Source: an uncultured bacterium
GTDB taxonomy: Bacteria > Patescibacteriota > Minisyncoccia > UBA6257 > 2-01-FULL-56-20
Reading direction: 5' to 3'
Length of the DNA stretch: 36,137 nucleotides
Assembly: GCA_963696395.1 (NCBI GenBank)
Contig: CAVOJZ010000001.1
Span: 1-36,137, forward strand
Shown here: one piece after another, positions 1 to 32,095 of the stretch
Layout of the letters: each line of letters opens with the position of its first letter
How positions within the stretch are numbered: the first letter of the stretch is position 1
Position numbers and translations under genes: made by a program
Notes under the pieces: model-generated
Databases searched by the model: none
What the model was told of the DNA's origin: nothing
The model's input: the letters and a program-made list of their open reading frames with translations, nothing else

Positions 1-1074
1 GAGGACAACTCAGCCCTTCTTGGAGCCATGATTATCACGCGTCTCCAGCTTGCGGCCATGTCGCGTGTCGATATCGCAGAGGAAAAACGCCGCGACTTTT
101 TCCTGTACGTTGACGAGTTTCAAAACTTCGCCACCGCGTCGTTTGCGAATATTCTTTCCGAAGCGCGAAAATACCGTCTGAGCCTTGTTCTTGCGCACCA
201 ATATATCGGCCAGCTTGTCGGGGCGGAAGGCAACACCAAAGTCCGCGATGCGGTATTCGGCAACGTCGGCACAATCATTACATTTCGTATTGGTGCCGCC
301 GACGCGGAATTCTTGGAACCCGAATTTATGCCGGAGTTTTTACAGCAGGATCTTGTAAACCTGGCCAAGGCAAATGTTTATTTAAAACTGATGATCGACG
401 GCGTTTCATCGAGGCCGTTTTCGGCAACAACCCTGCCTCCGGTTAAGCCTCCTCTTCTCTCTCATCGGGACGTGATCATCGCAAACTCTCAACAAAAATA
501 CGGAACCCAGCGAAGTATCGTTGAGTCGAGAATTGCGAGTGAGTGGGGCGCACAAAGCGACGCCGCAATCAACGAAAAAATCGGCCGCCGGAATGAGCAG
601 TCGCTTTCGCAAACACTTCGCAACGATTCTCGCCAGAATTCATCCTTCCGTCCGAGGGGAACCTCGCCGAGCCGCCTTAACGGACCCAATCAATCTTTTG
701 GGAATGCTCCGCGTGAAGCCTGGCCGCGTCCGGTTCGGGAGGCGGCACCTGTGATTCAGCAGGCGCCACAAATATCGAACCCCAGGCCGGCTCAGGTTTC
801 GCCGCCAGCCGGAGAAGCGCCGGTATTAATGCCCGTGATTGAGCCTTCCGCCACGAAGCCAACCGTCCCGGAAAAAAATCCTGTCCCGGCTGCGGTTTCA
901 CAGGCTGCCGCTCCGCAGGTCGCGATTGACCAGCCGCAAACGCCACAGACACCACCGGCTAAACCGGCTCATAAGCATTTTCCAAAATCAAACGTTGATA
1001 TCAATGCTTTGCGGCGCGCCATCAGCGAATCACTAAAAAAACAAAGCGAGGAAGGAGAAAAGGGCAGCTCCTGA
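1..1074 (+). CDS. VirD4/TraD-like (type IV coupling protein family) P-loop ATPase, C-terminal part; 5'-truncated by the window edge
   Basis: Frame 1 is open from base 1 (EDNSALLGAMIITRLQLAAMSR). Walker B region FFLYVDEFQNF, then LSEARKYRLSLVLAHQY and FGNVGTIITFRIG, typical of VirD4/TraD C-terminal domains. Long Pro/Ala/Gln-rich tail. Confidence 0.8.
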   Translation, partial: EDNSALLGAMIITRLQLAAMSRVDIAEEKRRDFFLYVDEFQNFATASFANILSEARKYRLSLVLAHQYIGQLVGAEGNTKVRDAVFGNVGTIITFRIGAADAEFLEPEFMPEFLQQDLVNLAKANVYLKLMIDGVSSRPFSATTLPPVKPPLLSHRDVIIANSQQKYGTQRSIVESRIASEWGAQSDAAINEKIGRRNEQSLSQTLRNDSRQNSSFRPRGTSPSRLNGPNQSFGNAPREAWPRPVREAAPVIQQAPQISNPRPAQVSPPAGEAPVLMPVIEPSATKPTVPEKNPVPAAVSQAAAPQVAIDQPQTPQTPPAKPAHKHFPKSNVDINALRRAISESLKKQSEEGEKGSS

Positions 1075-1084
1075 TTTTTTCGCT

Positions 1085-1741
1085 ATGCGATTCCATATCC
1101 TCACTATTTTCCCGGATATATTCGATTCGTATCTTGGCGAATCGCTTTTTAAGCGTGCTCTCGCAAAGAAAATCATTTCAGTTGACGTCCATGATATCAG
1201 GACTTATACAACCGACCGGCATCGCAAGGTTGATGACCGGCCTTTTGGCGGCGGACCCGGTATGGTTCTGAAAGTCCAGCCGGTATACAATGCGGTCAAA
1301 AAAATCAAAACAAAGATCAAAGGCGGAAAGAAAAATGTGCGGGTTATATTGTTTTCGACCCGCGGGAAAAAACTTGATGCAAAAATGGCAAAACGCCTTT
1401 CACGGACGGAGCATTTGATTTTAATTTGCGGACGTTATGAGGGTGTTGATGAGCGGATCGCCCAATATGTTGCCGATGAGGAGGTTTCGATAGGGGATTA
1501 TGTCTTGAGCGGCGGAGAATTGCCCGCCCTCGTGCTTGTGGAAGCTGTGAGCCGGCACATTCCGGGCTTTCTCGGCAAAGAAGAATCGCTTGAGGAAACG
1601 AACGGATCATTCCCGACATATACGCGGCCCGAGGTATTTAGCCCCGCCAAAGCAAAGTCTTGGGCTGTCCCAAAGGTGTTGCTGTCCGGAAATCATAAGA
1701 AAATAAAAGAGTGGAGAAAGCTCGGAAAGAGAAGTTCATAA
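1085..1741 (+). CDS. trmD: tRNA (guanine-N1)-methyltransferase TrmD
   Basis: Motifs VDDRPFGGGPGMVL, LICGRYEGVDERI, SIGDYVLSGGELPA and LLSGNHKKI. Confidence 0.97.
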   Translation: MRFHILTIFPDIFDSYLGESLFKRALAKKIISVDVHDIRTYTTDRHRKVDDRPFGGGPGMVLKVQPVYNAVKKIKTKIKGGKKNVRVILFSTRGKKLDAKMAKRLSRTEHLILICGRYEGVDERIAQYVADEEVSIGDYVLSGGELPALVLVEAVSRHIPGFLGKEESLEETNGSFPTYTRPEVFSPAKAKSWAVPKVLLSGNHKKIKEWRKLGKRSS

Positions 1742-1772
1742 TTTTTTAACCTACTCGGCATATGCTGGAGGA

Positions 1773-3176
1773 ATGTCGAACGACTACTCGTTAGCCGATG
1801 AGGGGTTTTGGTTTCTTGCCGCATTCATACTCGGTATTTTCGTCGCGCCTTTCGGTTGGATTATTTGTCCGATCGTTGCAATGGTCGGCATTATTTTTTG
1901 CGCTCTCTTTTCTGCACAGAAAAAGATTTGGTGGCGTATTGCGGCCGGGGTTCTTGCATCGTTTTGCGCGGGAGTGTTGTTGTACCGTTTTTACGTCGCG
2001 CTGGACGCGGAATCGCTTAGATTGCCGATAGGAAAGGAAATTTCTTTTTTAGCTCTTGTTGTGAGTGATCCGTCAGAATCGGCAAAATACGAAATATTCA
2101 CGGCTGACCCATGGCACTCTCACGCCCTCACCGTTCTCGCTCCGCCAACAAGTGGATTTCGTTACGGCGATCTGCTCGAAATAAACGGATTCCTTGGCTC
2201 GCCCGACGGTCAGGGGAAAAACCCATTTGTCATTCCGCTTAAAATAACGATCATCGGACACCACCACGGTTCTCGGCTTCTCGAAGCATTGAGCAATTTC
2301 AAACGCTCAATACTGAAACGATTCGTGAGTTTTTTGCCGCAAGACCAGGCGGCACTTTTGGGCGGCGTTACCATTGGAGGCTCCTCGGGTATGAGCGTCG
2401 AACTAAAGAACGAAATGGAAGCTTCAGGGACTTCCTACGTGCTTTCAATGTACGGGTTTAAAATCGCGGCGATCATCGCCCTCGCATCATCAATTTTTGC
2501 TTATGTGCTTCCGCGCCGTGTTTCGCTGCTCATCGGTTTGTGTATTATCGCTCTCTTCGTTCTTATGGCGGGACTTATTGCATCCGCTGTGAGGGCGGGA
2601 ATTATGGCCGCCATAGCGCTAATCTCACAGGGAATTGGTCGGCCATTCAACAAGCGCAACGCGCTGATGTTCACGGCATCAATCATGTTATGTTTCAACC
2701 CGTTCCTCCTTGCCGGTGATATTGGGTTTCAACTCTCATTTTTAAGCGTTATCGGAATTTTATGCCTAACCAATCCAATAAAACGTTATTGGCGGTACAA
2801 AAGCCCCGGTTTTTTGCTATGGAGAGACGGAGTTACAACCACGATTGCCGTGCTCGCGCCGATGGTGCCATTTATTACCGCGCCAGACGGCAAATTTACC
2901 GTGAGCGCAATCCTATCGAATACTCTGATGTTTCTCGCGACGCTATACACCTTCTTTCTTGGCATTTCGCTTGCGGCGGCAAGTTTCATCTCGTCGCCGG
3001 CTTCCTTCATGATCGCCGAGGCCGGATCAATCATTCTGAAATATCAATTATTGGTGGTGAAGTTTTTTTCCATCGTGGCTATTTCATTTCCGATCTCATT
3101 CCATGAGCCAGTCGTTGTAATTATTTATTACGCAGCCATCGTCATTTTTATAATCAGTCAGCATGAAGATTTTTAG
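1773..3176 (+). CDS. comEC: ComEC/Rec2 family competence membrane protein (N-terminal OB-like region plus Competence domain); metal motif degenerate
   Basis: Multi-TM protein with GFRYGDLLEING (OB-like), QAALLGGVTIG, SAVRAGIMA, FNPFLLAGDIGFQLSFLSVIGI and SAILSN. The expected HxxxxSGxH/N segment reads SYVLSMYGFK. Confidence 0.85.
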   Translation: MSNDYSLADEGFWFLAAFILGIFVAPFGWIICPIVAMVGIIFCALFSAQKKIWWRIAAGVLASFCAGVLLYRFYVALDAESLRLPIGKEISFLALVVSDPSESAKYEIFTADPWHSHALTVLAPPTSGFRYGDLLEINGFLGSPDGQGKNPFVIPLKITIIGHHHGSRLLEALSNFKRSILKRFVSFLPQDQAALLGGVTIGGSSGMSVELKNEMEASGTSYVLSMYGFKIAAIIALASSIFAYVLPRRVSLLIGLCIIALFVLMAGLIASAVRAGIMAAIALISQGIGRPFNKRNALMFTASIMLCFNPFLLAGDIGFQLSFLSVIGILCLTNPIKRYWRYKSPGFLLWRDGVTTTIAVLAPMVPFITAPDGKFTVSAILSNTLMFLATLYTFFLGISLAAASFISSPASFMIAEAGSIILKYQLLVVKFFSIVAISFPISFHEPVVVIIYYAAIVIFIISQHEDF

Positions 3177-3945
3177 AACAATCGATCCGATCAGCCTTTT
3201 TATTATTTTTAGCTTCGCGATTTTTGATTGTGCGACTTGGTGGACGATATTTATGTCCACAATGAACGAGCCTGTCAGAATATATTTTCTCGGCGTAACC
3301 ACCGGAAGTTCGGAGTTGGTTGTCCTTCCTGGAGATATAAAGTTATTGATCGATGCGGGACCTGATCAAAAAATTATCGACGCGTTGGCAAAAATAATGC
3401 CGGAAAACGACCGGAGAATCGACTTAGCGATCGTTACTACGCCATTAGTGAATCATTTCGGTGGCTACACCAATATCCTTGAACAATATCGTCTTGGCGC
3501 ATTTCTCTATAATGGCCGAAAACCGTTATCTTACGGTGATGAGACATCCTGGCAGCAACTAACACAAAAGATTAGAGATCTCCATATCCCAATCGTAACA
3601 CTCGGAGCCGGAGATAAAATTATTTACGGCGCCAGTGCTGCCGCCGTTTTATCTCCGGATTCGGCTTTTAGCCATAGCGCATCTTTGAATGACGCATCAA
3701 TAGTTTTATATCTTAAAACGGAAAACCTCGGCGTATTGTTTGCTGCAAGTGCGGGAGCGAATGTTGAAAAGATGATTTTCTCAAGATACGGCAACATTCG
3801 TGTCGACGTTTTACAGGGCGATACTTCGTTTAAAGAATTTGATCCGATTACCGCAACTTCGAGCAAAGCTGGCGTTGTAACCGAGTTATGGCAAACCGAA
3901 GATAGCTCAAAAAAACAGGCTCTGCATACGAGAGTTATCAGATAG
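3163..3945 (+). CDS. ComEC-associated metallo-beta-lactamase-fold protein (separately encoded ComEC C-terminal module); motif degenerate
   Basis: Overlaps the comEC stop. LLIDAGPD, RRIDLAIVTTPLVNHFGG (canonical THxHxDHxGG) and SLNDASIVLYL (canonical NxxSxV) are recognisable. N-terminal hydrophobic segment. Confidence 0.8.
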   Translation: MKIFRTIDPISLFIIFSFAIFDCATWWTIFMSTMNEPVRIYFLGVTTGSSELVVLPGDIKLLIDAGPDQKIIDALAKIMPENDRRIDLAIVTTPLVNHFGGYTNILEQYRLGAFLYNGRKPLSYGDETSWQQLTQKIRDLHIPIVTLGAGDKIIYGASAAAVLSPDSAFSHSASLNDASIVLYLKTENLGVLFAASAGANVEKMIFSRYGNIRVDVLQGDTSFKEFDPITATSSKAGVVTELWQTEDSSKKQALHTRVIR

Positions 3946-3974
3946 GCGGGAAGCGATGATACAATGAGAGCATA

Positions 3975-5246
3975 ATGATGAAAATTCAAAATACCGAGGC
4001 GCTTGCGCTCACATCCGGCAGAAAAGCGTTGCTTGCGATCGCGGAAGCGGGACTGAAGGCAATCGATACTGAAACCGTAATCCGTGAAGAGATCAAGCGC
4101 TCAGTAGACACGGTGCAAGTGGCGGGTGAAACGATTGACCTGAAAGAGATAAAAAAATTAATTTTTATTGCCGTCGGGAAATGTGCTGCCGATTCGGCGT
4201 TCGCCGTTTCACAAGTGATCGGCGACCATATCACGAGTGGCGTTGTCGTCGACGTTAAGGAATGCCCGCCGATCGATAACCTTAAAACTTTTAAAGGAAC
4301 GCATCCACTGCCTTCGGCTGAAAATTTACGGGCCGCCCAGGCGGTTCGCGATGCTCTAGCCGGCCTCACCGAAAATGATTTGGCACTTTTTGTTATTTCC
4401 GGTGGTGGATCGACCTTGCTTTTTTTGCCCGAAGACGAACGCTCGAATGAAGAAATAAGGATTGTAACGGAACTCATGGATGCCGGAGCAACAATTCAGG
4501 AGACCAATATTGTCCGCAAGCATTTATCGCTTGCCCGTGGAGGTTATCTTGCAAAATACGCCTATCCAGCACGTGTTGTCGCGCTTATCATGAGCGATGT
4601 TCCGGCAAATGACATTTCTTTTATCGCGTCCGGCCCGACCGTTATGGACGAGACCACAATAAAAGACGCAGAAGCTGTTTTGGCCAGATTTAAAATTAAA
4701 AAAGCCGGACTGGTTGAAACACCAAAGGAAGATAAATATTTTAAAAAAGTAACTAATTTCCTCGCCGCTTCAAATATTCGGGCGCTTGCGGAAATGAAAA
4801 AGTGCGCAGAGGCCATGGGATTCAACGCAATCATCGAGGACACGGAATTAGTTGGGGAGGCAGCGGCGACTGGAAAATCTATTTCGGCAAAGATTGCCGC
4901 AGCGAATTCAAAAACCGTTATGCTGTGGGGCGGCGAAACTACCGTAAAAGTTCGCGGTAGCGGAACCGGAGGGAGGAATCTTGAGGTGAGCCTGTCGGCG
5001 TTGAGGTCGGTTCCTGATGGCGTCGAGATTCTCTCGCTTGCGTCTGACGGGCGCGATCATGGACCCTTCGCCGGCGCGATCTGTGATACAATAACAAAAA
5101 GAGTTGTCGAGAAAGCCGGACTCGATATCGAACACTTTTTGCGCGAGAACAACACCTATCCTTTTTTCGAAGAGGTGGGGAATTATGTGATGACGGGCGA
5201 CACCGGGTCGAACGTGTCGGATCTCATCATCGCTCTAAAAGAATAA
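3975..5246 (+). CDS. Glycerate kinase, class II (MOFRL/DUF4147 family; usually 2-phosphoglycerate forming)
   Basis: Motifs AVGKCA, GTHPLPS, VISGGGSTLL, NIVRKHLS..RGG, SDVP.ND..FIASGPT, GGETTV.V.G.G.GGRN, SDGRD and TGSNVSDL. An alternative ATG lies at 3978. Confidence 0.9.
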   Translation: MMKIQNTEALALTSGRKALLAIAEAGLKAIDTETVIREEIKRSVDTVQVAGETIDLKEIKKLIFIAVGKCAADSAFAVSQVIGDHITSGVVVDVKECPPIDNLKTFKGTHPLPSAENLRAAQAVRDALAGLTENDLALFVISGGGSTLLFLPEDERSNEEIRIVTELMDAGATIQETNIVRKHLSLARGGYLAKYAYPARVVALIMSDVPANDISFIASGPTVMDETTIKDAEAVLARFKIKKAGLVETPKEDKYFKKVTNFLAASNIRALAEMKKCAEAMGFNAIIEDTELVGEAAATGKSISAKIAAANSKTVMLWGGETTVKVRGSGTGGRNLEVSLSALRSVPDGVEILSLASDGRDHGPFAGAICDTITKRVVEKAGLDIEHFLRENNTYPFFEEVGNYVMTGDTGSNVSDLIIALKE

Positions 5247-5256
5247 CTTTAAAAAT

Positions 5257-7728
5257 ATGGATAAATCTAACAAACACATTTTGCAATATGAAGAAGTCGG
5301 CATAAAAGATGTCGGAATGGTCGGAGGGAAAAATGCCTCGCTCGGGGAGATGATTCGAACGCTTCATGAAAAGAAAGTGCCCGTGCCGTCGGGCTTTGTG
5401 GTCACCGCTTCCGCGTATTTTTATTTCCTGGAAAAAACAGGACTCGATAAGTTTATTAAAGATACATTAAAAGGACTTAATACCAAAAATTTGGCGGAGT
5501 TGCATCGTTGCGGCTCGACAATTCGCTCAGCCATTATGAAAACCGAATTTCCGAAAGACTTGGCTGACGAAATCGTACATGCTTACCACGGACTCGAAAA
5601 GAAATACGGGAAAAATGCCGATGTTGCCGTCCGTTCATCCGCGACCGCGGAAGATCTGCCTGGTGCGAGTTTTGCCGGCGAACAAGAAAGTTATCTTGGT
5701 ATTCGAGGTGCGAGCCAGGTTTCCGAAGCAGTGCGAGCCACCATGGCTTCGCTTTTCACCGATCGCGCGATCTCTTATCGCACGGATCGGGGGTTCGATC
5801 ACATGAAGATTGCATTATCGGCTGGCGTGCAAAAAATGGTTCGTTCGGATCAGGCCTGCTCAGGTGTTATGTTTTCGCTCGATACCGAATCGGGTTTCCC
5901 GAATGTGGTGATTATAAACGGATCCTGGGGGCTCGGCGAAATGATTGTTAAGGGCGAAGTGACGCCCGATGAATTTCTTGTCTGGAAGGAAGGAATCAAG
6001 CAGGGAATCCAAAAACCAATAATCGACAAAAAACTTGGCGTGAAACTCCGCAAGATGATTTATCATCACGGCGCAAACATTCAACAGACAAAAGTGATTC
6101 CAACATCACAGGCGGAACGGGATTCGTTCGTGCTGACCGATGATGAAGTGATGAAACTCGCGACGTGGGGAACGATCATCGAGAAGCATTATTCGGATCA
6201 TTACAAGAAATGGACGCCAATGGATATGGAGTGGGCCAAAGATGGCGTTACGGGTGAACTTTTCATTGTGCAGGCGAGACCCGAAACCGTTCACGCCAAT
6301 CAGGACTTTTCCAAGATCAAGGAATACGTGCCGCTCGAGCATCGCGAACCGATTCTGATGGGGGCTTCGGTGGGTTCAAAAATCGCAACAGGCAAGGCTC
6401 ATGTGATTATGGACACAAAACACATCGCGGATTTTCGCAAGGGCGAAATTTTGGTAACGACAATGACCGATCCGGACTGGGAGCCGATTATGAAAATGGC
6501 TTCTGCAATCGTGACCGACAAGGGTGGCAGGACTTCGCATGCCGCTATTGTTTCGCGTGAACTTGGTATTCCCGCGATCGTGGGCACGGAAAAAGCAACC
6601 AAAATAATCAAATCGGGCGATGAAATTACCGTTGATACGACCGGCAGTGCCGGGAACATTTATAGAGGATTTTTGAAATTCAAGGTGGTGGAGCACGACC
6701 TTAAGAAAATTCCGAAACCCAAGACGAAGATCATGATCAATGTTGCGATACCCGATAGCGCTTTTGAGACATCGTTTCTTCCGAATGACGGTGTCGGGCT
6801 CGCACGCGAGGAGTTCATAATCGCATCAAAAATGGGTCTGCATCCGATGGCTTTGCTTAATTTAAGCGCCCAAACTCCGGCGGTTCGAAAAGCGATCGAA
6901 GAAAAAATGCGAGGATGGAAAGATCCAAAAAAATATTACGTGGACAATCTCGCCTATGGAATCGCAAAAATTGGCGCGGCATTTTACCCGAACCATGTGA
7001 TTGTCCGGTTTTCCGACTTCAAGACAAACGAATATCGAACACTGCTTGGCGGTGAGATGTACGAACCGAAAGAAGAGAATCCGATGATCGGCTGGCGCGG
7101 AGCGTCACGATATTATGATCCGAAATTTAAGCCGGCGTTTATGCTCGAAGCCGCCGCAGTGAAAAAAGTCCGGGAAGAACTCGGTCTTACCAATGTCATT
7201 CCCATGGTCCCGTTTTGCAGAACCGTGGAAGAGGGGATTAAGGTTCAGGAAACGATGGCGGAGGCAGGCCTCATTACGAATTACATCGCCCGCACGCGGA
7301 AAGTTCGGCACGCTCTCAAATCATTGGCGAATGGGAAAAAGGCAACAACCACGCCAATCTATGTTATGTGTGAAATTCCCTCAAACGTTTTAAATGCGGA
7401 CGCCTTCTTGGACATATTCGACGGCATGTCGATTGGATCAAATGATTTAACCCAGCTGACCATGGGCCTCGATCGTGATTCAGGTATTGTGACGAAAATT
7501 GCAAACGAAAAAAATCCCGCAGTGGAGCGGCTGATCGCGGAAATCATCGCAAAATGCCGAAAGCAGAAAAAGTATATAGGTATTTGCGGCCAGGGGCCGT
7601 CCGATTATCCTGATTTTGCGGAATTTCTTGTCGGATGTGGGATCGAAAGCATGTCTCTTAATCCGGATACCGTTGTCCGCACCACGGTGGCGGTGGCTAA
7701 AAAAGAAAAAGAAATGAAAAAAAGATAA
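5257..7728 (+). CDS. ppsA: Phosphoenolpyruvate synthase (pyruvate, water dikinase)
   Basis: VGGKNASLGEM, AVRSSATAEDLPGASFAGEQE, DMEWAKDG..LFIVQARPETVH, phospho-His GGRTSHAAIVSRE, GVGLAREEF, ENPMIGWRGASRY, SIGSNDLTQ and GICGQGPSD. Confidence 0.97.
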   Translation: MDKSNKHILQYEEVGIKDVGMVGGKNASLGEMIRTLHEKKVPVPSGFVVTASAYFYFLEKTGLDKFIKDTLKGLNTKNLAELHRCGSTIRSAIMKTEFPKDLADEIVHAYHGLEKKYGKNADVAVRSSATAEDLPGASFAGEQESYLGIRGASQVSEAVRATMASLFTDRAISYRTDRGFDHMKIALSAGVQKMVRSDQACSGVMFSLDTESGFPNVVIINGSWGLGEMIVKGEVTPDEFLVWKEGIKQGIQKPIIDKKLGVKLRKMIYHHGANIQQTKVIPTSQAERDSFVLTDDEVMKLATWGTIIEKHYSDHYKKWTPMDMEWAKDGVTGELFIVQARPETVHANQDFSKIKEYVPLEHREPILMGASVGSKIATGKAHVIMDTKHIADFRKGEILVTTMTDPDWEPIMKMASAIVTDKGGRTSHAAIVSRELGIPAIVGTEKATKIIKSGDEITVDTTGSAGNIYRGFLKFKVVEHDLKKIPKPKTKIMINVAIPDSAFETSFLPNDGVGLAREEFIIASKMGLHPMALLNLSAQTPAVRKAIEEKMRGWKDPKKYYVDNLAYGIAKIGAAFYPNHVIVRFSDFKTNEYRTLLGGEMYEPKEENPMIGWRGASRYYDPKFKPAFMLEAAAVKKVREELGLTNVIPMVPFCRTVEEGIKVQETMAEAGLITNYIARTRKVRHALKSLANGKKATTTPIYVMCEIPSNVLNADAFLDIFDGMSIGSNDLTQLTMGLDRDSGIVTKIANEKNPAVERLIAEIIAKCRKQKKYIGICGQGPSDYPDFAEFLVGCGIESMSLNPDTVVRTTVAVAKKEKEMKKR

Positions 7729-7734
7729 AAAAGC

Positions 7735-8721
7735 ATGGCACACAAGGCAACTTTTTTTAATGTCGACAGGTGGGGCGAGGAAGGTAAAAATTACTTGCGA
7801 TCGAGTTCGAAGCTGGCATCTGCAGGAGTCGAAGTCGCATTTGTCGATGCGATAGTATCAGCGGATAGCATACCGTCCGATAAAGACTTCGAAATTCTTG
7901 GCGTTTTTATGGATTCCAAAGTTGACGCAGCGACAATCGCAGCCCTTCCGGCAGTAAAATTTATCACCACGCTCTCGACAGGGTTCGACCACATCGACCT
8001 TAAAATCGCCGCGGAACGGGGAATTCCCGTTTCGTCGGTGCCCGCTTACGGTGAAAATACCGTTGCAGAATTCGCGTTCGCGCTTATTCTGTCGCTTTCA
8101 AGAAAGATTTGCGAATCGCGCGAAAGGATTCGCACCGAAGGGAAATTTACAACAGAGGGCCTCACGGGATTCGATCTTGCCGGGAAAACGATCGGCGTGG
8201 TTGGTACGGGGCGTATCGGCAAACATGCCGTTCGCATGGGCAGTGGTTTTGGCATGAAGGTTATTGCCTACGACGTCATCCACGACGACGCCTTCGCCGC
8301 ACAAATGGGTTTCCCCTATGTTTCCCTTGAAGAACTTTTGGCGAAAAGCGACGTGATAACCATCCACTGTCCTTACCTTCCGAGCACGCATCACCTCATC
8401 AACAATGGCAATATCGGTCTGGCGAAAAAAGGAGCGGTCTTGGTGAACACGGCCCGTGGGGCAATTGTGGAGACCTCGGCTATGATCACCGCATTAAAAA
8501 ATGGGCAGCTTGGCGGTGCCGGACTCGATGTATTGGAAGAGGAAGGCGATATGAAAGCGGGGAATATGGAAGCTGTCAAAGACTTAATCGCCATGCCAAA
8601 TGTGATCGTGACGCCACACAACGCATTCAATACCAAAGAGGCATTTCTCAGAATTCTTGATACCACGATCGACAATATTGTTGGCTATGTAAAGGGAGCG
8701 CCGATCAACATCGTCAAGTAG
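7735..8721 (+). CDS. D-isomer-specific 2-hydroxyacid dehydrogenase (D-lactate dehydrogenase / hydroxypyruvate reductase family)
   Basis: STGFDHID, VPAYGENTVAEF, Rossmann motif GVVGTGRIG, VNTARG (Arg), GLDVLEEE (Glu) and TPHNAF (His). Confidence 0.93.
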   Translation: MAHKATFFNVDRWGEEGKNYLRSSSKLASAGVEVAFVDAIVSADSIPSDKDFEILGVFMDSKVDAATIAALPAVKFITTLSTGFDHIDLKIAAERGIPVSSVPAYGENTVAEFAFALILSLSRKICESRERIRTEGKFTTEGLTGFDLAGKTIGVVGTGRIGKHAVRMGSGFGMKVIAYDVIHDDAFAAQMGFPYVSLEELLAKSDVITIHCPYLPSTHHLINNGNIGLAKKGAVLVNTARGAIVETSAMITALKNGQLGGAGLDVLEEEGDMKAGNMEAVKDLIAMPNVIVTPHNAFNTKEAFLRILDTTIDNIVGYVKGAPINIVK

Positions 8722-8722
8722 G

Positions 8723-9898
8723 ATGAAAATAAAATCGCTCCAAGCGCGGCCAATTCTCGACTCACGCGGCCAATGGACGGTAGAGGCTGAAATTATTTTT
8801 GCCGATGGCGTGAGTGCGGTGGCGTCGGTTCCACAGGGCAAAAGCACCGGCTCGTCGGAAGCAGTCGCATTACCGGCAAAAAAAGCCGTCCATAACATCG
8901 AAAAAATAATCTTGCCCAAACTGCGAGGGAAAAATATCTCAACCCAGGCCGACCTGGATGGTTTACTCACCACGCTCGATGGCACCGAGCAGAAAAAAAA
9001 TCTTGGCGCGAATGCAATTCTTGGCGTCTCTATCGCATATCTCCGGGCATACGCGGAGGCGAAGCATATCCCGCTGTGGAAACATATTGCGTCCATCGCC
9101 GAAAGCAAACCTTCGGCGCCGCGGTTGTTTATTAATGTTGTAAACGGCGGTTTGCACGCTGGAAACGATTTACATTTTCAGGAATATTTAATTATTCCAA
9201 AAGCAAAAACAATCCGGGAGTCGGTTGCTGTTGGAACAACTATTTATCAAACGCTCAAAAAAGCTCTGATTCGAACGAAGCAGAAAGGTGCGGCAAATAT
9301 TGGCGATGAAGGTGGTTACGCTCCGGATTTTAAGGACGACATGGAGCCGTTTCGCATTCTCCGTTCCGTAATGTCAACCCTGCACCTCGAAACAGCGGTT
9401 GATTTTGGCATGGATGCCGCTGCCACGGATGCCAAACTGGATGATCGTGAATTAGGTGCGTTTTATCAAAAATTTATTCGGCAGTATCGTCCGTTATATA
9501 TAGAAGATCCGTATCCCGAGGATCAATTTGAAAAATTTTCATCTCTTAAAGAAAAATACGCTGGTGGAAAGAATGCGAATCTTTGGATTGCCGGCGACGA
9601 CCTGACGACAACGAATGTCCGGCGGATGGAGCGGGCCCATGCGGAAGCCAGCGTAAATGCAGTGATTATAAAACCAAACCAAATCGGCTCGGTCACGGAA
9701 GCAATTGATGCCGTTAAAGCCGCCCGACGTTACGGATGGAAGGTGGTTGCTTCTCACCGCAGCGGCGAAACAAACGATACCTTTATTGCGGATTTTGCCT
9801 ACGGCATTGGTGCCGATGGCCTGAAACTTGGCGCCCCCGCACGAGGCGAGCGCATCGCAAAATATAACCGATTGCTGGAAATTGAGGCGGGGAATTAA
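8723..9898 (+). CDS. eno: Enolase (compact, 391 aa)
   Basis: ILDSRG.WTVE, PQGKSTG, LGANAILGVS, NGGLHA..FQEY, GDEGG, IEDP, GDDL, IKPNQIG, SHRSGET and ARGERIAKYNRLLEIE. Confidence 0.95.
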   Translation: MKIKSLQARPILDSRGQWTVEAEIIFADGVSAVASVPQGKSTGSSEAVALPAKKAVHNIEKIILPKLRGKNISTQADLDGLLTTLDGTEQKKNLGANAILGVSIAYLRAYAEAKHIPLWKHIASIAESKPSAPRLFINVVNGGLHAGNDLHFQEYLIIPKAKTIRESVAVGTTIYQTLKKALIRTKQKGAANIGDEGGYAPDFKDDMEPFRILRSVMSTLHLETAVDFGMDAAATDAKLDDRELGAFYQKFIRQYRPLYIEDPYPEDQFEKFSSLKEKYAGGKNANLWIAGDDLTTTNVRRMERAHAEASVNAVIIKPNQIGSVTEAIDAVKAARRYGWKVVASHRSGETNDTFIADFAYGIGADGLKLGAPARGERIAKYNRLLEIEAGN

Positions 9899-9914
9899 GG
9901 TATAATGAAGTGGT

Positions 9915-11426
9915 ATGACGCTTCTTATCAAGAATGTGCGTATCATTGGCGGAGCGCGGGACTTTCCTGACCCGTGCGATATTTTTGTAAACGGGGAAAG
10001 GATTTCAGCAATCGGAAACTTTCCGAAGAAACCCGCAGATGTCATTCTTGATGGCCAAGGGGCGTACCTAAGTCCCGGTTTTATCGATGTCAGTACCGCG
10101 TCGGATCATTATCTGACCTTGCTTGAATATCCGAGCCAGGAGGATTTTTTGAAACAAGGAGTGACGACCATTTTCGGGGGCATGTGCGGCGCGTCGCTTG
10201 CGCCGCTTATTTATGGTGGGCTTGAATCGTTTCGGAAATGGGGTGGAACCGACCGCGTAAACGTCAACTGGCACAGCATGGCTGAGTTCCTCGCAGAGAT
10301 AGATAAACGGCCTCTCGCCGTCAATTTTGGAACACTGGCGGGGCATTCAACGATTCGTCGTGCGATTACGGGTGACGCTATCCGGGATTTAACAAAAAAC
10401 GAACTCGAAGTTTTTAAAACAACCCTTGTTGCGGCACTTCAGGAAGGCGGTTTCGGCCTTTCTACCGGCCTCGAATACATCCACACAAGCAAAGCACCTT
10501 ACTCGGAATTAAAGTTTCTCGCTGATATCACCAAGCGTTTCAATGGGGTATATGCGACTCACCTTCGAAATGCCACCGATGAACTGGAAGCATCGGTTCG
10601 TGAAACCATTAAAATCGCCGATGAAACAAATGCAAAAATATTGGTAAATCATTTCGTCCCTATTACGGGCTATGAAAAGCAATACGAGCAATCGTTGAAG
10701 ACGATCGAATCTTTGCCTGCCGAAAAAGATTTTCGTTTTGGCATTTACCCCTCGCTCTTCACGATGTCCGCGATTTACACGTTCCTACCGCGGTGGGCTC
10801 AGGTGGAAGGGTTTGAAAAGATGAGATCACAATTAAAAGATAATTGGATGGCTGCAAAAATCGAAAAGGATATGCCGAAGATGGAGGAGGATAATTTCAT
10901 CGTCGCACAGGCGCCCGGAAACGATTTTTTGGTTGGTCGTTCGCTCCGGGAGATCGGGGATATGTATAACATTGACGATGGACGCGGAGCGCTTTTAAAG
11001 CTTATGGCGACTCTCGATATGCGCGGCGCGGCGCTCTATAAAAATATTAATGAAAAACTGGTAACACGGGCCATGGCCAGTTCGCGAAGCTTTATAACTT
11101 CAAACGCCCCAAGTTTTGGTTTCGCAAAAGATCGGCGGCTGAAGTCGGAACACACAACATCAACCTTCATGCAATTTCTTTCGGCTGTTGAAGATTGGAA
11201 AATAATGCCGCTCGAGGAAGCCATACGGAAAATAACGCTTGAACCGGCAAAGACTTTTAACCTCACCGGACGAGGGGAAATAAAAGAGGGGAATTTCGCA
11301 GACATAACCTGCTTCAAGGGAAGTGAAATAAAATTCACTGTTGTTAACGGATCGCTTGCAATGCAGGATGGTGAATTTAAGGGGTCGTTCCAGGGCGTGG
11401 CGTTACGCCACGCCAGTCCAAAATAA
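9915..11426 (+). CDS. Amidohydrolase, N-acyl-D-amino-acid deacylase-like
   Basis: LSPGFID, QGVTTIFGGMCGASLAP, AVNFGTLAGHSTIRR, GFGLSTGLEY, YATHLRN, EEAIRKITLEPA and RGEIKEGNFADI. The stop overlaps the ftsW start (TAATG at 11424-11428). Confidence 0.85.
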   Translation: MTLLIKNVRIIGGARDFPDPCDIFVNGERISAIGNFPKKPADVILDGQGAYLSPGFIDVSTASDHYLTLLEYPSQEDFLKQGVTTIFGGMCGASLAPLIYGGLESFRKWGGTDRVNVNWHSMAEFLAEIDKRPLAVNFGTLAGHSTIRRAITGDAIRDLTKNELEVFKTTLVAALQEGGFGLSTGLEYIHTSKAPYSELKFLADITKRFNGVYATHLRNATDELEASVRETIKIADETNAKILVNHFVPITGYEKQYEQSLKTIESLPAEKDFRFGIYPSLFTMSAIYTFLPRWAQVEGFEKMRSQLKDNWMAAKIEKDMPKMEEDNFIVAQAPGNDFLVGRSLREIGDMYNIDDGRGALLKLMATLDMRGAALYKNINEKLVTRAMASSRSFITSNAPSFGFAKDRRLKSEHTTSTFMQFLSAVEDWKIMPLEEAIRKITLEPAKTFNLTGRGEIKEGNFADITCFKGSEIKFTVVNGSLAMQDGEFKGSFQGVALRHASPK

Positions 11427-12538
11427 TGGCCACGACAGCACCGCGGCGCGTTGCGCGCAATCCAGACTATCTCCTGCTCGCGGTCATTTTTTTGTTGCTT
11501 GTTTTTGGCTTGGCAATGCTTGCGTCGGCGTCATCGGACCTCGGGAAAACACAATTCAACGACACTTATTATTATCTGAAGCATCAGATACTTTATGGTT
11601 TGTCATTGGGAGCTGCGGGATTTCTGATTGCCTATTTTGTTCCATTCTACCGCTGGAAAAAATTTGCCTTTATCTTTCTTCTCATCGGAATTTTTGCTCT
11701 GATGGCCGTTTTTACTCCGCTTGGAACTTTCGCCGGAGGCTCAAGTCGGTGGCTCAAGCTTGGCTTCCTAAGTTTTCAACCGGCAGAGCTGATGAAGCTT
11801 GTCTTTATCATGTATCTCGCGGCGTGGCTTTCGAATACAAAATTTAAGCGTTCAACTGATTTTCAATCGGGGCTCGTGCCATTTTTAGCGATAGCCGCTC
11901 TTGTCGGAACGTTGCTACTTTTGCAACCGGCAACCAGCACCGTCGCAATTTTACTCGGAGCCGGTCTCGCAGTTTATTTTGTAAGTGGCGCGCCGTTTAA
12001 ATATGTCGTTGGCATTATCGCGCTCGGCGTCGTAGTAGTGGCGCTCGTTATTTACATAACGCCATATCGCCGTGCGCGCATTCTCGGATATCTCGATCCG
12101 AGTTCCGATTCGCAAGGCCAAAACTACCAGGTGAACCAGGCTCTTATCGCAATCGGATCGGGGGGGCTCACGGGGGTCGGTTACGGGCAGTCCGCCACCA
12201 AGGCAAGTTATCTTCCGACACCGATCGATGATTCGATTTTTGCGGTCACCGGTGAAGAGCTTGGCTTTGTCGGTGCTTCAATCCTTGTGGTGCTCTTTGC
12301 GTTGCTTTGCACACGCATGTTCTGGCTTGCTAAACGCATGGGTGATCAATTCGGCAGATTGATGCTCGTCGGCTTCGGTAGTGTGGTTGCTCTTCAAGCA
12401 TTCGTTAATATGGCGTCTATTTCCGGCCTTATACCGCTTACCGGCGTCCCGTTGCCGTTTGTAAGCTACGGCGGAACCGCTCTCGCGATTTTCATCACCA
12501 TGATGGGACTTTCGGTAAATGTAACCAAATATAGGTAG
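11426..12538 (+). CDS. ftsW: SEDS peptidoglycan polymerase FtsW
   Basis: GGSSRWLKLG..SFQPAELMKL, YRRARI, YQVNQALIAIGSGG..GVGYG, DSIFAVTGEELGF and TGVPLPFVSYGGT. Adjacency to murG favours ftsW over rodA. Confidence 0.92.
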   Translation: MATTAPRRVARNPDYLLLAVIFLLLVFGLAMLASASSDLGKTQFNDTYYYLKHQILYGLSLGAAGFLIAYFVPFYRWKKFAFIFLLIGIFALMAVFTPLGTFAGGSSRWLKLGFLSFQPAELMKLVFIMYLAAWLSNTKFKRSTDFQSGLVPFLAIAALVGTLLLLQPATSTVAILLGAGLAVYFVSGAPFKYVVGIIALGVVVVALVIYITPYRRARILGYLDPSSDSQGQNYQVNQALIAIGSGGLTGVGYGQSATKASYLPTPIDDSIFAVTGEELGFVGASILVVLFALLCTRMFWLAKRMGDQFGRLMLVGFGSVVALQAFVNMASISGLIPLTGVPLPFVSYGGTALAIFITMMGLSVNVTKYR

Positions 12539-12547
12539 AATAATACT

Positions 12548-13693
12548 ATGGCCGACCGAAATATATTTACCGTGGTTCTAACCGGAGGCGGCAGCGGGGG
12601 GCACATCTATCCTTTGTTGGCAGTGGCGGAAGTCTTGCAGGGAAAAATCCGGGCGCTCGGCGGGGAAACTCAATTTGTATATATCGGACCGCGGGACGCA
12701 TACGCGCCGTTGTTCGACCAGCGGAATATAGCGATACGGCCGATCATGGTCGGAAAGATACGACGATATTTCTCACTCGAAAACTTCTTGGATATCCCAA
12801 AGTTTTTTATTGGCTTGTGGCAGGCGCTGTGGCAGCTTTACCTTGTGATGCCCGACGTTGTTTTTTCAAAAGGCGGCACAGGAGCCTTCCCGGTTGTGCT
12901 CGCAGCCTGGTTTTACCGCATCCCGGTTGCGCTTCACGAATCGGACGCCGAACCCGGTCTTACCAATCTTGTTTCATCGCGCTTCGCAAATAGAATTTTC
13001 GTCAGTTTTGAGCGTGCAGCCCAGCGCTTCAACCCTGCGAAGACGCTCGTGTCCGGTGCGCCCATCCGGCCTGAGGTGCTTTTGCATCCGCCGACAAAAG
13101 AAGACGCAAAGGAAGCGTTAAATTTTAATAAAAACGAACCGCTCACGCTCGTTTTGGGCGGATCGCAGGGTTCAGTTCGTATTAATGAATTCATTTCGGC
13201 AAACCTTGCCGATATAGTGAAAAATACCCAGATGCTACATCAAACGGGAACCGCTAATTTTGACGATGTAAAAAAATTATCGAATGCCGCACTGGCTGAC
13301 CAACCGGCGGCGGCGAACATCAGGTATCAGCCGGTGAATTATCTTGCCGATAAGCTTCAGGCTGCACTTGCCGCGGCGGATCTTGTCGTTATGCGACCGG
13401 GCGGATCCATTTTTGAAATTGCGGCATTTGGAATTCCTGCAATTCTTATTCCACTTACTGAATCGGCGAACGACCATCAGCGAATCAATGCGTATGAGTT
13501 CGCAAACGCCGGCGGAGGTGTTGTGATCGAAGAGATAAATTTACTTCCGGGGATATTCCTATCTCAACTTAAAAATATTCTTTCCAACACAGAGCTTCGA
13601 TCAAAAATGAGCGCCGCGTCGTCCAAGTTTTTTATCCCGAACGCAGCAGAATCGATCGCCGATGGCATCATTGCCATCGCGGCAGGGAAGTAG
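12548..13693 (+). CDS. murG: UDP-GlcNAc:lipid I transferase MurG
   Basis: TGGGSGGHIYP, FSKGG..AFP, LHESD..PGLTN, VLGGSQGS..IN and ILIPL..SANDHQRINA. Confidence 0.96.
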   Translation: MADRNIFTVVLTGGGSGGHIYPLLAVAEVLQGKIRALGGETQFVYIGPRDAYAPLFDQRNIAIRPIMVGKIRRYFSLENFLDIPKFFIGLWQALWQLYLVMPDVVFSKGGTGAFPVVLAAWFYRIPVALHESDAEPGLTNLVSSRFANRIFVSFERAAQRFNPAKTLVSGAPIRPEVLLHPPTKEDAKEALNFNKNEPLTLVLGGSQGSVRINEFISANLADIVKNTQMLHQTGTANFDDVKKLSNAALADQPAAANIRYQPVNYLADKLQAALAAADLVVMRPGGSIFEIAAFGIPAILIPLTESANDHQRINAYEFANAGGGVVIEEINLLPGIFLSQLKNILSNTELRSKMSAASSKFFIPNAAESIADGIIAIAAGK

Positions 13694-30937: not shown

Positions 30938-32095
30938 TTATACCAGATGCAACCGGCCAAGAGCTTTTTGTTTTTCACCTCCACCCAACTTGGTTTTCTC
31001 CACCGCCCGGCCAAGGATTTTGATAGTCTCGTCATACGTCTTCGTGTCAACCATATAAGGGGTTCCGTCCTTCCCGCCGTGGGCATAACTATAGCGTGCA
31101 GGATCTTCGTAGGAAGGCTCGGCCCCGTAAATAACTTCGCCGACCAGAGCCAGGGCTCGAAGCGTTTTAGGACCGACTCCCTGAAGAGCGACCAATTCTT
31201 CATACGTTGCAGGCTTGTGTTCTGCTACGGTAGCAAGCACCTTTTCCAAATACTTACTCTTACTGAAATTTTCGTGCACCATGGGATGATACTTAAATTC
31301 CCGGGATTCAAGGTTAAGAAGGGTGAGTTGTTGTCCGGCGCCGTTTTTTACTGATATTGTCTGACTGAGGCGTGAGGAATATTTCCGCAAAAGCTGAATG
31401 TCTTTCATGAGTGTTGCATAGCCCGATTGGACGAGTTCGGTTGAGATCTGCCTCGTTTTTCCACTTTGTTTCGCCGTAAGATCAAGAACGGTTTTCATGA
31501 CCATCGGCGAACTTATTGCAGTATGCGGCTCATCGACCAAATCGTTGATGTCCTCCGAGTACCAATGGTAACGCCGGGCGGATTGTTTTTCGGCATTCAT
31601 GCCCTGTTGGACGACCGCCCACGAACCTTTCTTCGAAAAGAAAAATGCATGATGGTAGAGCTGAAATCCATCCTGCACAAGGGCACTATCAACCTTCGCG
31701 CTCATCTTCGAATTGTAAACAAGATTTTCCGCTCCTTGAGCCGAAAGAGATAATTTTTCACCCCAGCTTCTGATTTCATCCGGCGTCTTGCGCGAAGTCT
31801 TTCCTTTCCCACCACAAATGAAAATTCCCAGATCCTTTTCCTGGCCGCGAATTGCCTCTTTGAGCGCAGCTGTGAGGATCGTGGTGAGTCCGCTTGCATT
31901 CCAATCGAACGCAAGAACCGTGCCAAGCGATTGGAACCAGACCGGATCGGCGATCCGTTTTATAAATTCCTCCGGACCGTATTCGGCGACAAGCACCTGC
32001 GTCATCTCTCGCCCAAGCTTGACCATCCGCTCAAAAAGCCACGGAGGACAATGCCCGCCATCAAGCCGGAATAAGGCAACGCCGCGATGGATCAT
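30938..32095 (-). CDS. DUF763 family protein
   Basis: LDGGHCPPWLFERM, DPVWFQSLG.VLAFDWNASGLTT, SAKVDSALVQDGFQLYHH, WAVVQQGMN...ARRYHW, HhH-like LQGVGPKTLRAL and YSYAHGGKDG.PY. Confidence 0.88.
   Translation of the reverse strand: MIHRGVALFRLDGGHCPPWLFERMVKLGREMTQVLVAEYGPEEFIKRIADPVWFQSLGTVLAFDWNASGLTTILTAALKEAIRGQEKDLGIFICGGKGKTSRKTPDEIRSWGEKLSLSAQGAENLVYNSKMSAKVDSALVQDGFQLYHHAFFFSKKGSWAVVQQGMNAEKQSARRYHWYSEDINDLVDEPHTAISSPMVMKTVLDLTAKQSGKTRQISTELVQSGYATLMKDIQLLRKYSSRLSQTISVKNGAGQQLTLLNLESREFKYHPMVHENFSKSKYLEKVLATVAEHKPATYEELVALQGVGPKTLRALALVGEVIYGAEPSYEDPARYSYAHGGKDGTPYMVDTKTYDETIKILGRAVEKTKLGGGEKQKALGRLHLV

Follow-up and report, generated by a model that had tools for sequence, protein, structure and literature searches.

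A conserved neighborhood of glycerate kinase, PEP synthase, D-2-hydroxyacid dehydrogenase and enolase genes in Patescibacteria, with a possible role as a fermentation leg with a glycerate side entry

A contig from an uncultured member of the Patescibacteriota (GenBank assembly GCA_963696395.1, contig CAVOJZ010000001.1) carries four adjacent genes for enzymes that act around 2-phosphoglycerate (2-PG), phosphoenolpyruvate (PEP) and pyruvate. The stretch analyzed, referred to here as the window, comprises 36,137 nucleotides from position 1 of the forward strand. Within it, the four genes are intact open reading frames (ORFs) on the + strand, all with ATG starts, in the following order:

3975..5246, + strand: GK, class-II (MOFRL-type) glycerate kinase, 423 aa, domains DUF4147 and MOFRL
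5257..7728, + strand: PpsA, phosphoenolpyruvate synthase (pyruvate, water dikinase), 823 aa, domains PPDK_N, PEP-utilizers and PEP-utilizers_C, models NF005057 and TIGR01418
7735..8721, + strand: HADH, D-isomer-specific 2-hydroxyacid dehydrogenase of the D-lactate dehydrogenase (D-LDH) type, 328 aa, domains 2-Hacid_dh and 2-Hacid_dh_C
8723..9898, + strand: ENO, enolase, 391 aa, domains Enolase_N and Enolase_C, model TIGR01060

An earlier reading of the sequence, referred to here as the original prediction, had described four co-oriented genes of these families with gaps of 10, 6 and 1 nt, and this description is borne out by the ORFs, the junction sequences and the Pfam and NCBIfam matches. 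The tight spacing is not distinctive, because all + strand genes from 1085 to 13693, encoding TrmD, two ComEC pieces, the four enzymes, an amidohydrolase, FtsW and MurG, lie equally close, separated by -14 to 31 nt. Promoter-like and terminator-like sites occurred at chance level in scans against shuffled expectation (16 seen vs 15.9 expected, and 22 seen vs 22.1 expected, respectively), and neither set an operon boundary. Both observations would suit four housekeeping genes that happen to stand side by side in a dense, strand-biased genome. Such a lack of any functional link is nevertheless very improbable, as the neighborhood recurs across many families with a different gene order and different flanking genes, and the chance of one given gene lying within 8 kb of another in a genome of about 1 Mb is under about 2%.

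This recurrence was followed in 54 GK-anchored loci from other genomes, to which the window proteins were aligned by tblastn. The set is biased, with 8 loci picked for PpsA near GK and 20 for PpsA not near GK, and 18 of the 54 are truncated by a contig end. Within 8 kb of GK, PpsA was found in 28 loci, HADH in 29 and enolase in 22. The complete set of four genes is present in 15 loci and three or more of them in 27, and GK stands alone in 17. Arrangements include GK-PpsA-HADH-ENO, GK-PpsA-ENO-HADH, HADH-GK-ENO-PpsA and GK-ENO-PpsA, as well as ENO-HADH-GK beside a divergent PpsA, with or without pyruvate kinase (PK). The genes that flank the cluster in the window were matched in only two loci, each time by a ComEC C-terminal match (L031 and L046), and GK identities of 30-68% across the loci mean that these are not near-identical recent copies. 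That the neighborhood survives rearrangement and a change of flanks is good evidence that the four genes are functionally linked. Conservation of the four-gene order in the candidate phyla radiation (CPR), which the original prediction had put forward as a check, stood for the neighborhood and failed for the order, which is not fixed.

Frequencies were taken from a phylum sample of 400 evenly drawn Patescibacteria genomes, in which close kin do not count as independent. GK is present in 55 of these; within the window's genus, 18 of 22 genomes carry it. Its relatives in named public records come from Paceibacterota, Saccharibacteria, Jorgensenbacteria, Roizmanbacteria and metagenome-assembled genomes (MAGs) labeled 'Patescibacteria group', which bears out the CPR origin assumed in the original prediction. 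Of the 31 sampled genomes with both GK and PpsA, 8 have the two within 10 kb of each other, and enolase is within 4 kb of GK in 8 of the 55 GK-bearing genomes.

The glycerate kinase is assigned through residues 19-243, which match PF13660 (DUF4147, 206 bits), and residues 315-416, which match PF05161 (MOFRL, 96.2 bits). Its best solved relative is 2b8n, a putative glycerate kinase from Thermotoga maritima (217.6 bits, residues 38-421); 1x3l (PH0495) scores 199.9 bits over residues 22-421. By homology, this enzyme is predicted to convert D-glycerate and ATP to 2-PG, and its direct junction with enolase in three loci (L014, L015 and L035) fits 2-PG as the product. Several inputs were considered and rejected. 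For entry through RuBisCO and nucleoside salvage, which would yield 3-phosphoglycerate, no RuBisCO large subunit was found in the genome, and for formation of glycerate from glyceraldehyde there was no aldehyde dehydrogenase family match. Hydroxypyruvate from serine was likewise dismissed: the genome has two Aminotran_5 matches, both of which score with models of cysteine desulfurases alone (NifS, 387 bits; SufS, 115 bits), and no gene resembling a serine-pyruvate or glyoxylate aminotransferase was found. For the hydroxypyruvate or glycerate feed of the original prediction, these searches turned up no source inside the genome.

PpsA lies well above two equivalog cut-offs (NF005057, 1100 bits vs 598; TIGR01418, 1066.2 bits vs 739.75), and its mobile domain contains the motif G-G-R-T-S-H-A-A-I, that of the phospho-carrier histidine. 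It is the only PPDK_N match and the only PEP-utilizers_C match in the genome; with no second match to either, no pyruvate, phosphate dikinase (PPDK) and no phosphotransferase system (PTS) enzyme I were found. Pyruvate kinase was also missing from the genome, in a search whose positive controls succeeded in 14 of 14 genomes. All absences from this genome rest on Pfam searches of an assembly of 949,819 bp in two contigs with an estimated completeness of 95.84%. Since PK, PPDK and PTS enzyme I were not found, PpsA is the sole link found between PEP and pyruvate.

Across the phylum sample, PK is present in 272 of 400 genomes. It occurs in 85 of the 158 genomes with a strong PpsA match compared with 187 of the 242 others (odds ratio 0.34, with kin not independent), which leaves 73 of the 158 with PpsA and no PK. 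Among cluster-bearing genomes in the sample, no PK match was found in G363, G337, G284 and G123 of the window's class, nor in G004 and G332. A simple phylum-wide pattern of PpsA instead of PK was rejected, as it holds only in part. PK directly adjoins PpsA in G190, G114, G306, G153, G112, G171, G334, G253, G013, G308, G188, G022, G205 and G397, and also at L018:9648-11057, so that many Patescibacteria keep two opposing enzymes of one step side by side. In G190, PpsA-PK and ENO-HADH-GK form one divergent cluster.

The dehydrogenase is the only true 2-hydroxyacid dehydrogenase in the genome, with a 2-Hacid_dh_C match of 186.8 bits in addition to 2-Hacid_dh, and no Ldh_1_N match, the domain of L-lactate and malate dehydrogenases, was found there. 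Its nine best solved relatives, among which 5z20 ranks first (234 bits), are all D-LDHs or D-LDH-like (189-234 bits). The first relative of another kind is the phosphoglycerate dehydrogenase (PGDH) 1wwk at 186.9 bits, and solved glyoxylate reductases and glycerate dehydrogenases score below the D-LDHs, at 123-162 bits, with 2cuk at 162. Alignment with 5z20, at about 40% identity, pairs NTARG with NTGRG, DVLEEE with DVYEEE, PHNAF with AHQAF and VPAYG with VPAYS, segments that hold the catalytic residues Arg, Glu and His as well as the Tyr and Phe lining the D-LDH substrate site. Relative to 5z20 and its kin, the protein has an N-terminal extension of about 20 residues. On this basis, HADH is predicted to interconvert pyruvate and D-lactate with NADH, and possibly also hydroxypyruvate and D-glycerate.

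The fourth gene encodes an enolase that, at 391 aa, is short, and matches TIGR01060 at 341.8 bits against a cut-off of 300 over model positions 1-407 of 425. Among solved enolases, it scores 291 bits with the human, 279 with an archaeal and 230 with the E. coli enzyme. It is the only copy in the genome, as both Enolase_C matches fall in ORF 8723-9898. One copy each of independent phosphoglycerate mutase (iPGM; TIGR01307, 504 bits vs a cut-off of 330.65), phosphoglycerate kinase (PGK) and glyceraldehyde-3-phosphate dehydrogenase (GAPDH) is encoded outside the cluster, with one split transketolase near the GAPDH gene. The cluster enolase is for this reason the housekeeping copy of an ordinary CPR trunk pathway, and a comparable pathway has been described for other CPR genomes (PMC7143001; PMC7304191, in the part of that paper available). 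Neither pyruvate:ferredoxin oxidoreductase (PFOR) nor phosphofructokinase (PFK) was found in the genome. Among 12 cluster-bearing genomes, PFOR occurs in one, PFK and arginine deiminase in none, transketolase in all 12, and an F1-ATPase alpha/beta pair in 11, including the genome under study. In one relative, the F1-ATPase matches lie in pieces with one TGA (G407:C1:441757-444749), a frameshift or an assembly error.

Chemically, the four assignments uphold the contiguous chain of the original prediction, from glycerate through 2-PG, PEP and pyruvate to D-lactate, and the absence it had asked about, of PK and of a second enolase, was found in the whole-genome search. Its phosphoglycerate mutase check turned the other way, since the single iPGM elsewhere counts against self-containment, as do the sole housekeeping enolase and the outlying PGK and GAPDH. 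A separate route entering below upper glycolysis is not what the genome encodes; the four genes belong to the last part of an ordinary trunk pathway, to which GK adds a side entry. The substrate ambiguity noted for the dehydrogenase was confirmed, its sequence being of the D-LDH type and its context that of a glycerate kinase partner.

The four genes form a conserved operon-like neighborhood around 2-PG, PEP and pyruvate and not an independent pathway. The reading preferred here, with a probability of roughly 0.55, is that the cluster is the terminal leg of a fermentation, in which PpsA stands in for PK and D-lactate is the end product, joined by a side entry for glycerate through GK. Triose phosphate from a pentose phosphate shunt would pass through GAPDH, PGK and iPGM to 2-PG, which enolase would convert to PEP. 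PpsA would then run from PEP, AMP and phosphate to pyruvate and ATP, and HADH would reduce pyruvate to D-lactate, re-oxidizing the NADH formed by GAPDH. Removal of pyruvate by HADH could pull the near-equilibrium PpsA step. At the side entry, GK would deliver 2-PG from D-glycerate directly upstream of enolase, and this glycerate might be scavenged or made from hydroxypyruvate by the same, probably promiscuous, dehydrogenase.

Pyruvate formation by PpsA in this genome is inferred from necessity. Carbon derived from GAPDH would otherwise stop at PEP, and the NADH would be left with no sink, the only candidate being the adjacent pyruvate-reducing dehydrogenase. According to the available part of one review, PEP synthase is needed for glycolysis in Thermococcus kodakarensis (PMC8100219), and PEP synthetase was suggested as a stand-in in CPR lacking PK by Jaffe et al. 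2020 (PMC7304191, in the portion available). The same part of PMC8100219 states that the reaction strongly favors PEP formation and that the enzyme is gluconeogenic in most organisms.

That last point weighs against the preferred reading, as do several others. A special kinship of PpsA to the glycolytic archaeal enzymes was considered and rejected: its best solved relative is the bacterial 2ols (794.8 bits), ahead of the archaeal 24-chain PEP synthase entries 9dae and 8a8e (583 and 465 bits). Nor is it a general substitute for PK, because 85 of 158 PpsA genomes also have PK, often adjacent. An outlet from PEP via oxaloacetate, through PEP carboxykinase, PEP carboxylase or malic enzyme, may exist and would weaken the argument from necessity. 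Because the F1-ATPase pair is present, ATP need not come from substrate-level steps alone. On the glycerate side, no source of glycerate or hydroxypyruvate and no carboxylate transporter were found in the genome searches, and GK with a lactate dehydrogenase would not be balanced by themselves, because conversion of glycerate to pyruvate is redox-neutral. GK also misses two glycerate 2-kinase equivalog cut-offs (NF041176, 222.8 vs 550; NF040791, 201.7 vs 670), which limits its naming and not its family placement because both models were built for archaeal lineages. HADH reaches no NCBIfam functional cut-off, falling below those for D-LDHs (vanH_gen, 210 vs 540; NF006374, 165.7 vs 356; NF009127, 145.7 vs 579). 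Its most conserved neighbor is GK and not PpsA, which favors hydroxypyruvate or glycerate as its substrate.

The last of these observations belongs to an alternative that partly overlaps the preferred reading, in which HADH is mainly a hydroxypyruvate reductase, the core of the cluster runs from HADH through GK to enolase, and PpsA handles the resulting PEP, much as in a segment of the serine cycle or of serine degradation. This arrangement is a tentative possibility, clearly less probable than a fermentation leg. Where sampled genomes hold both genes, HADH is found within 6 kb of GK in 20 of 30 cases. It adjoins GK in 9 of 20 loci with PpsA elsewhere and is present in 30 of 55 genomes with GK compared with 84 of 345 without. 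A quick tree of the dehydrogenases, with SH-aLRT support and with the broken L039 row left out, contains a clade of eight directly GK-adjacent enzymes with a slightly different motif (support 83). In two genomes, a different and divergent type of 2-hydroxyacid dehydrogenase stands beside GK (L044:7000-7980, - strand, in G173; L049:9278-10240, + strand, in G015), with the motif PH-x-A-H-A-T, in which a polar His replaces the Phe of D-LDHs. Among solved structures this type matches the Aquifex D-LDH 3kb6 best, and among NCBIfam models PGDH, under the cut-off; its place beside GK again favors hydroxypyruvate or glycerate as substrate.

Biochemistry offers partial encouragement for this role. In the available part of PMC4230899, the D-LDH of Pseudomonas aeruginosa, the closest solved relative, reduces hydroxypyruvate with a kcat of 420 per s and an S0.5 of 3 mM, giving a kcat/S0.5 of 140 compared with 4,000 for pyruvate. 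Since that enzyme reduces both substrates, a single dehydrogenase acting on pyruvate and hydroxypyruvate is chemically reasonable. A main role as hydroxypyruvate reductase, however, sits poorly with the sequence of the window HADH, which is of the D-LDH type (234 vs 162 bits) with the H-x-A-F motif kept, and lies far under the cut-offs of the glyoxylate/hydroxypyruvate reductase models (NF009714, 208.4 vs 455; GhrB, 152.4 vs 492; GhrA, 42 vs 403). In the window, HADH adjoins PpsA and enolase, not GK, and no gene resembling a serine-pyruvate aminotransferase was found in the genome. Homologues occur in 114 of the 400 phylum genomes, 84 of which lack GK and share the active-site motifs of the window enzyme, and 111 of the 114 have PK or PpsA. 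These shared motifs and the co-occurrence with PK or PpsA fit a pyruvate reductase with a GK-independent, lactate-forming role.

The direction of flow is the subject of another alternative, in which the cluster serves anabolic salvage. Here, D-lactate or pyruvate from a host would be oxidized and turned into PEP by PpsA, and glycerate into 2-PG by GK. Both arms would supply PEP to MurA, and also triose phosphate for biosynthetic use, formed by way of enolase, iPGM, PGK and GAPDH. This possibility is rather unlikely, slightly more so than a hydroxypyruvate core. The thermodynamics and usual role of PpsA (PMC8100219, in its available part), the bacterial type of the enzyme and the presence of an F1-ATPase pair are all in its favor. 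The GK reaction runs irreversibly toward the trunk pathway, and lactate oxidation would supply exactly the NADH that a reversed GAPDH needs. The coexistence of PK and PpsA in many Patescibacteria, often as adjacent genes, also implies a role for PpsA of its own in those genomes.

Salvage would nevertheless leave glycolytic carbon to dead-end at PEP in a genome in which PK, PPDK and PTS were not found. No sink for GAPDH-derived NADH was found either: of the 12 cluster genomes, 11 gave no PFOR match, and L-LDH was not found. The route would cost three ATP equivalents per triose, and no respiratory or arginine deiminase-type source of ATP was found. NAD-linked D-LDHs also normally act as pyruvate reductases.

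Exchange between lineages bears on how far the four genes behave as a unit. Two genomes of the window's genus, G421 (L034) and G422 (L035), which were set against L021-L030 and L038, have the order HADH-GK-ENO-PpsA. Their GK and enolase are 38-40% identical to those of the window, compared with 54-69% for other members of the genus and family, and are nearer to those of other families (47-59%), while PpsA stays genus-like. In the quick tree, their dehydrogenase belongs to the clade of enzymes that directly adjoin GK. This pattern suggests that the dehydrogenase, kinase and enolase genes were laterally replaced as a unit, and such a joint move without PpsA is a further point for hydroxypyruvate as the substrate of HADH.

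A more ambitious proposal is that the genes form a laterally exchangeable C3 cassette, with which PK-less Patescibacteria live on scavenged three-carbon acids through a promiscuous D-LDH-type enzyme. HADH would reduce both hydroxypyruvate, to D-glycerate, and pyruvate, to D-lactate, consuming two NADH per hydroxypyruvate. GK, enolase and a reversed PpsA would give a net gain of ATP, with one ATP spent to ADP and one AMP raised to ATP. This proposal is improbable, well behind the salvage and hydroxypyruvate alternatives; if true, it would be a bacterial counterpart of PEP synthase use in Thermococcus and a previously undescribed fermentation leg.

Variation at related loci includes a HADH-enolase pair where GK lies elsewhere (G302:C1:331092-333304) and PpsA-enolase pairs in the same situation (G245, G328, G039 and G064); in G064, enolase matches occur at two separate sites on contig C4. 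At three loci of the same genus, L039 (G401), L022 (G414) and L026 (G406), PpsA matches are in two or three pieces, and at L039 HADH and enolase are also in pieces; these are frameshifts or assembly errors. A check for transporters and regulators among the ORFs that interrupt the cluster in relatives showed mostly small, lineage-specific ones with no obvious function. Inside the cluster, L010:11374-13101 (+), in a Saccharibacteria MAG, and L031:9436-11214 (+), in a member of the window's order, encode a Cys-rich protein (about 575-592 aa) with numerous CxxC pairs, which no NCBIfam model matched.

Several known systems resemble parts of this locus. In Thermococcus kodakarensis, PEP synthase runs from PEP to pyruvate and forms ATP from AMP (Imanaka et al. 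2006, as reviewed in the available part of PMC8100219). The likeness lies in PpsA at the PEP-pyruvate step, for which no other enzyme was found here and where the glycolytic direction would be the same. Thermococcus, however, draws its AMP from ADP-dependent sugar kinases and has PK as well (PMC8100219, same part), whereas in this genome neither PK nor a comparable source of AMP was found, and PpsA is of the bacterial type (2ols).

A second comparison is with glycerate 2-kinase TM1585 of Thermotoga maritima, reportedly placed in a serine-degradation context by Yang et al. in J Bacteriol in 2008. Both kinases belong to the DUF4147 and MOFRL family, with the 217.6-bit match to 2b8n, and both have a D-2-hydroxyacid dehydrogenase partner and a 2-PG product, predicted in the present case, that feeds enolase. 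Unlike the Thermotoga system, the present one has a dehydrogenase of the D-LDH type instead of the glyoxylate/hydroxypyruvate reductase type and a kinase of modest identity, and no serine/hydroxypyruvate aminotransferase was found in the genome.

The third likeness is one of reaction order. The methylotroph serine cycle contains a segment of hydroxypyruvate reductase, glycerate 2-kinase and enolase, and the archaeal non-phosphorylative Entner-Doudoroff branch one of glycerate 2-kinase, enolase and PK. The sequence from glycerate through 2-PG and PEP to pyruvate is the same, but no C1 assimilation, 2-keto-3-deoxygluconate (KDG) aldolase or aldehyde dehydrogenase was seen in this genome, and PpsA stands where those routes have PK or PEP carboxylase. 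Finally, the fermentative, NAD-dependent D-LDHs of Gram-negative bacteria (5z20 and relatives; PMC4230899, in its available part) are the best match to HADH, with the catalytic Arg, Glu and His and the pattern Y...H-x-A-F aligned. The window enzyme differs from them in its identity of only about 40%, its N-terminal extension and its genomic tie to a glycerate kinase.

All four enzyme families are known, and use of PpsA for PK in CPR has been proposed (PMC7304191, in the portion available). That portion describes a patchy distribution of PK and an absence of PFK with a pentose phosphate shunt in CPR lower glycolysis, both of which fit this genome; within it, no glycerate kinase and no GK-PpsA-dehydrogenase-enolase neighborhood appear, and 'glycerate' occurs three times, always as phosphoglycerates. 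In the literature searched, which covered few subscription journals and no supplements, no paper on glycerate kinase in CPR was found. Within the same coverage, the recurrent, rearranging neighborhood with a class-II glycerate kinase and a D-LDH-type dehydrogenase, and its apparent exchange between lineages, appear to be undescribed.

A large share of bacterial diversity belongs to Patescibacteria/CPR, whose means of energy gain have largely been inferred from patchy gene inventories. At this locus, one lineage keeps the probable last steps of fermentation as a unit, tied to a glycerate kinase that CPR metabolic surveys have not discussed. If PpsA runs toward pyruvate, each PEP would yield two ATP equivalents instead of one, a difference that matters at the energetic margin. 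Should HADH act on hydroxypyruvate, these symbionts would have in glycerate or hydroxypyruvate a currency that comes from the host. All four enzymes can be expressed and directly assayed, which puts the question within reach of experiment.

Other features of the window lie around the four genes. ComEC is represented by two overlapping ORFs, 1773-3176 (467 aa, Competence domain) and 3163-3945 (260 aa, weak ComEC C-terminal match), and may be a split or frameshifted gene. Between enolase and FtsW, 9915-11426 encodes a 503-aa protein of the amidohydrolase superfamily that known models match at its two ends only; this gene was not found beside the cluster in relatives. The start of the window (28-1074) encodes a coupling-protein-like protein with a TraG/TraD C-terminal domain, and 30938-32095 encodes a DUF763 protein (423 bits). 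Outside the window, elsewhere in this genome (G000:C2:421930-425440, L083), genes for a UDP-sulfoquinovose-synthase-like protein (255 bits, under the cut-off), a class-V enzyme with weak likeness to SufS and, at 554 bits, a cyclopropane-fatty-acyl-phospholipid synthase stand together, a lipid chemistry unexpected for so small a genome.

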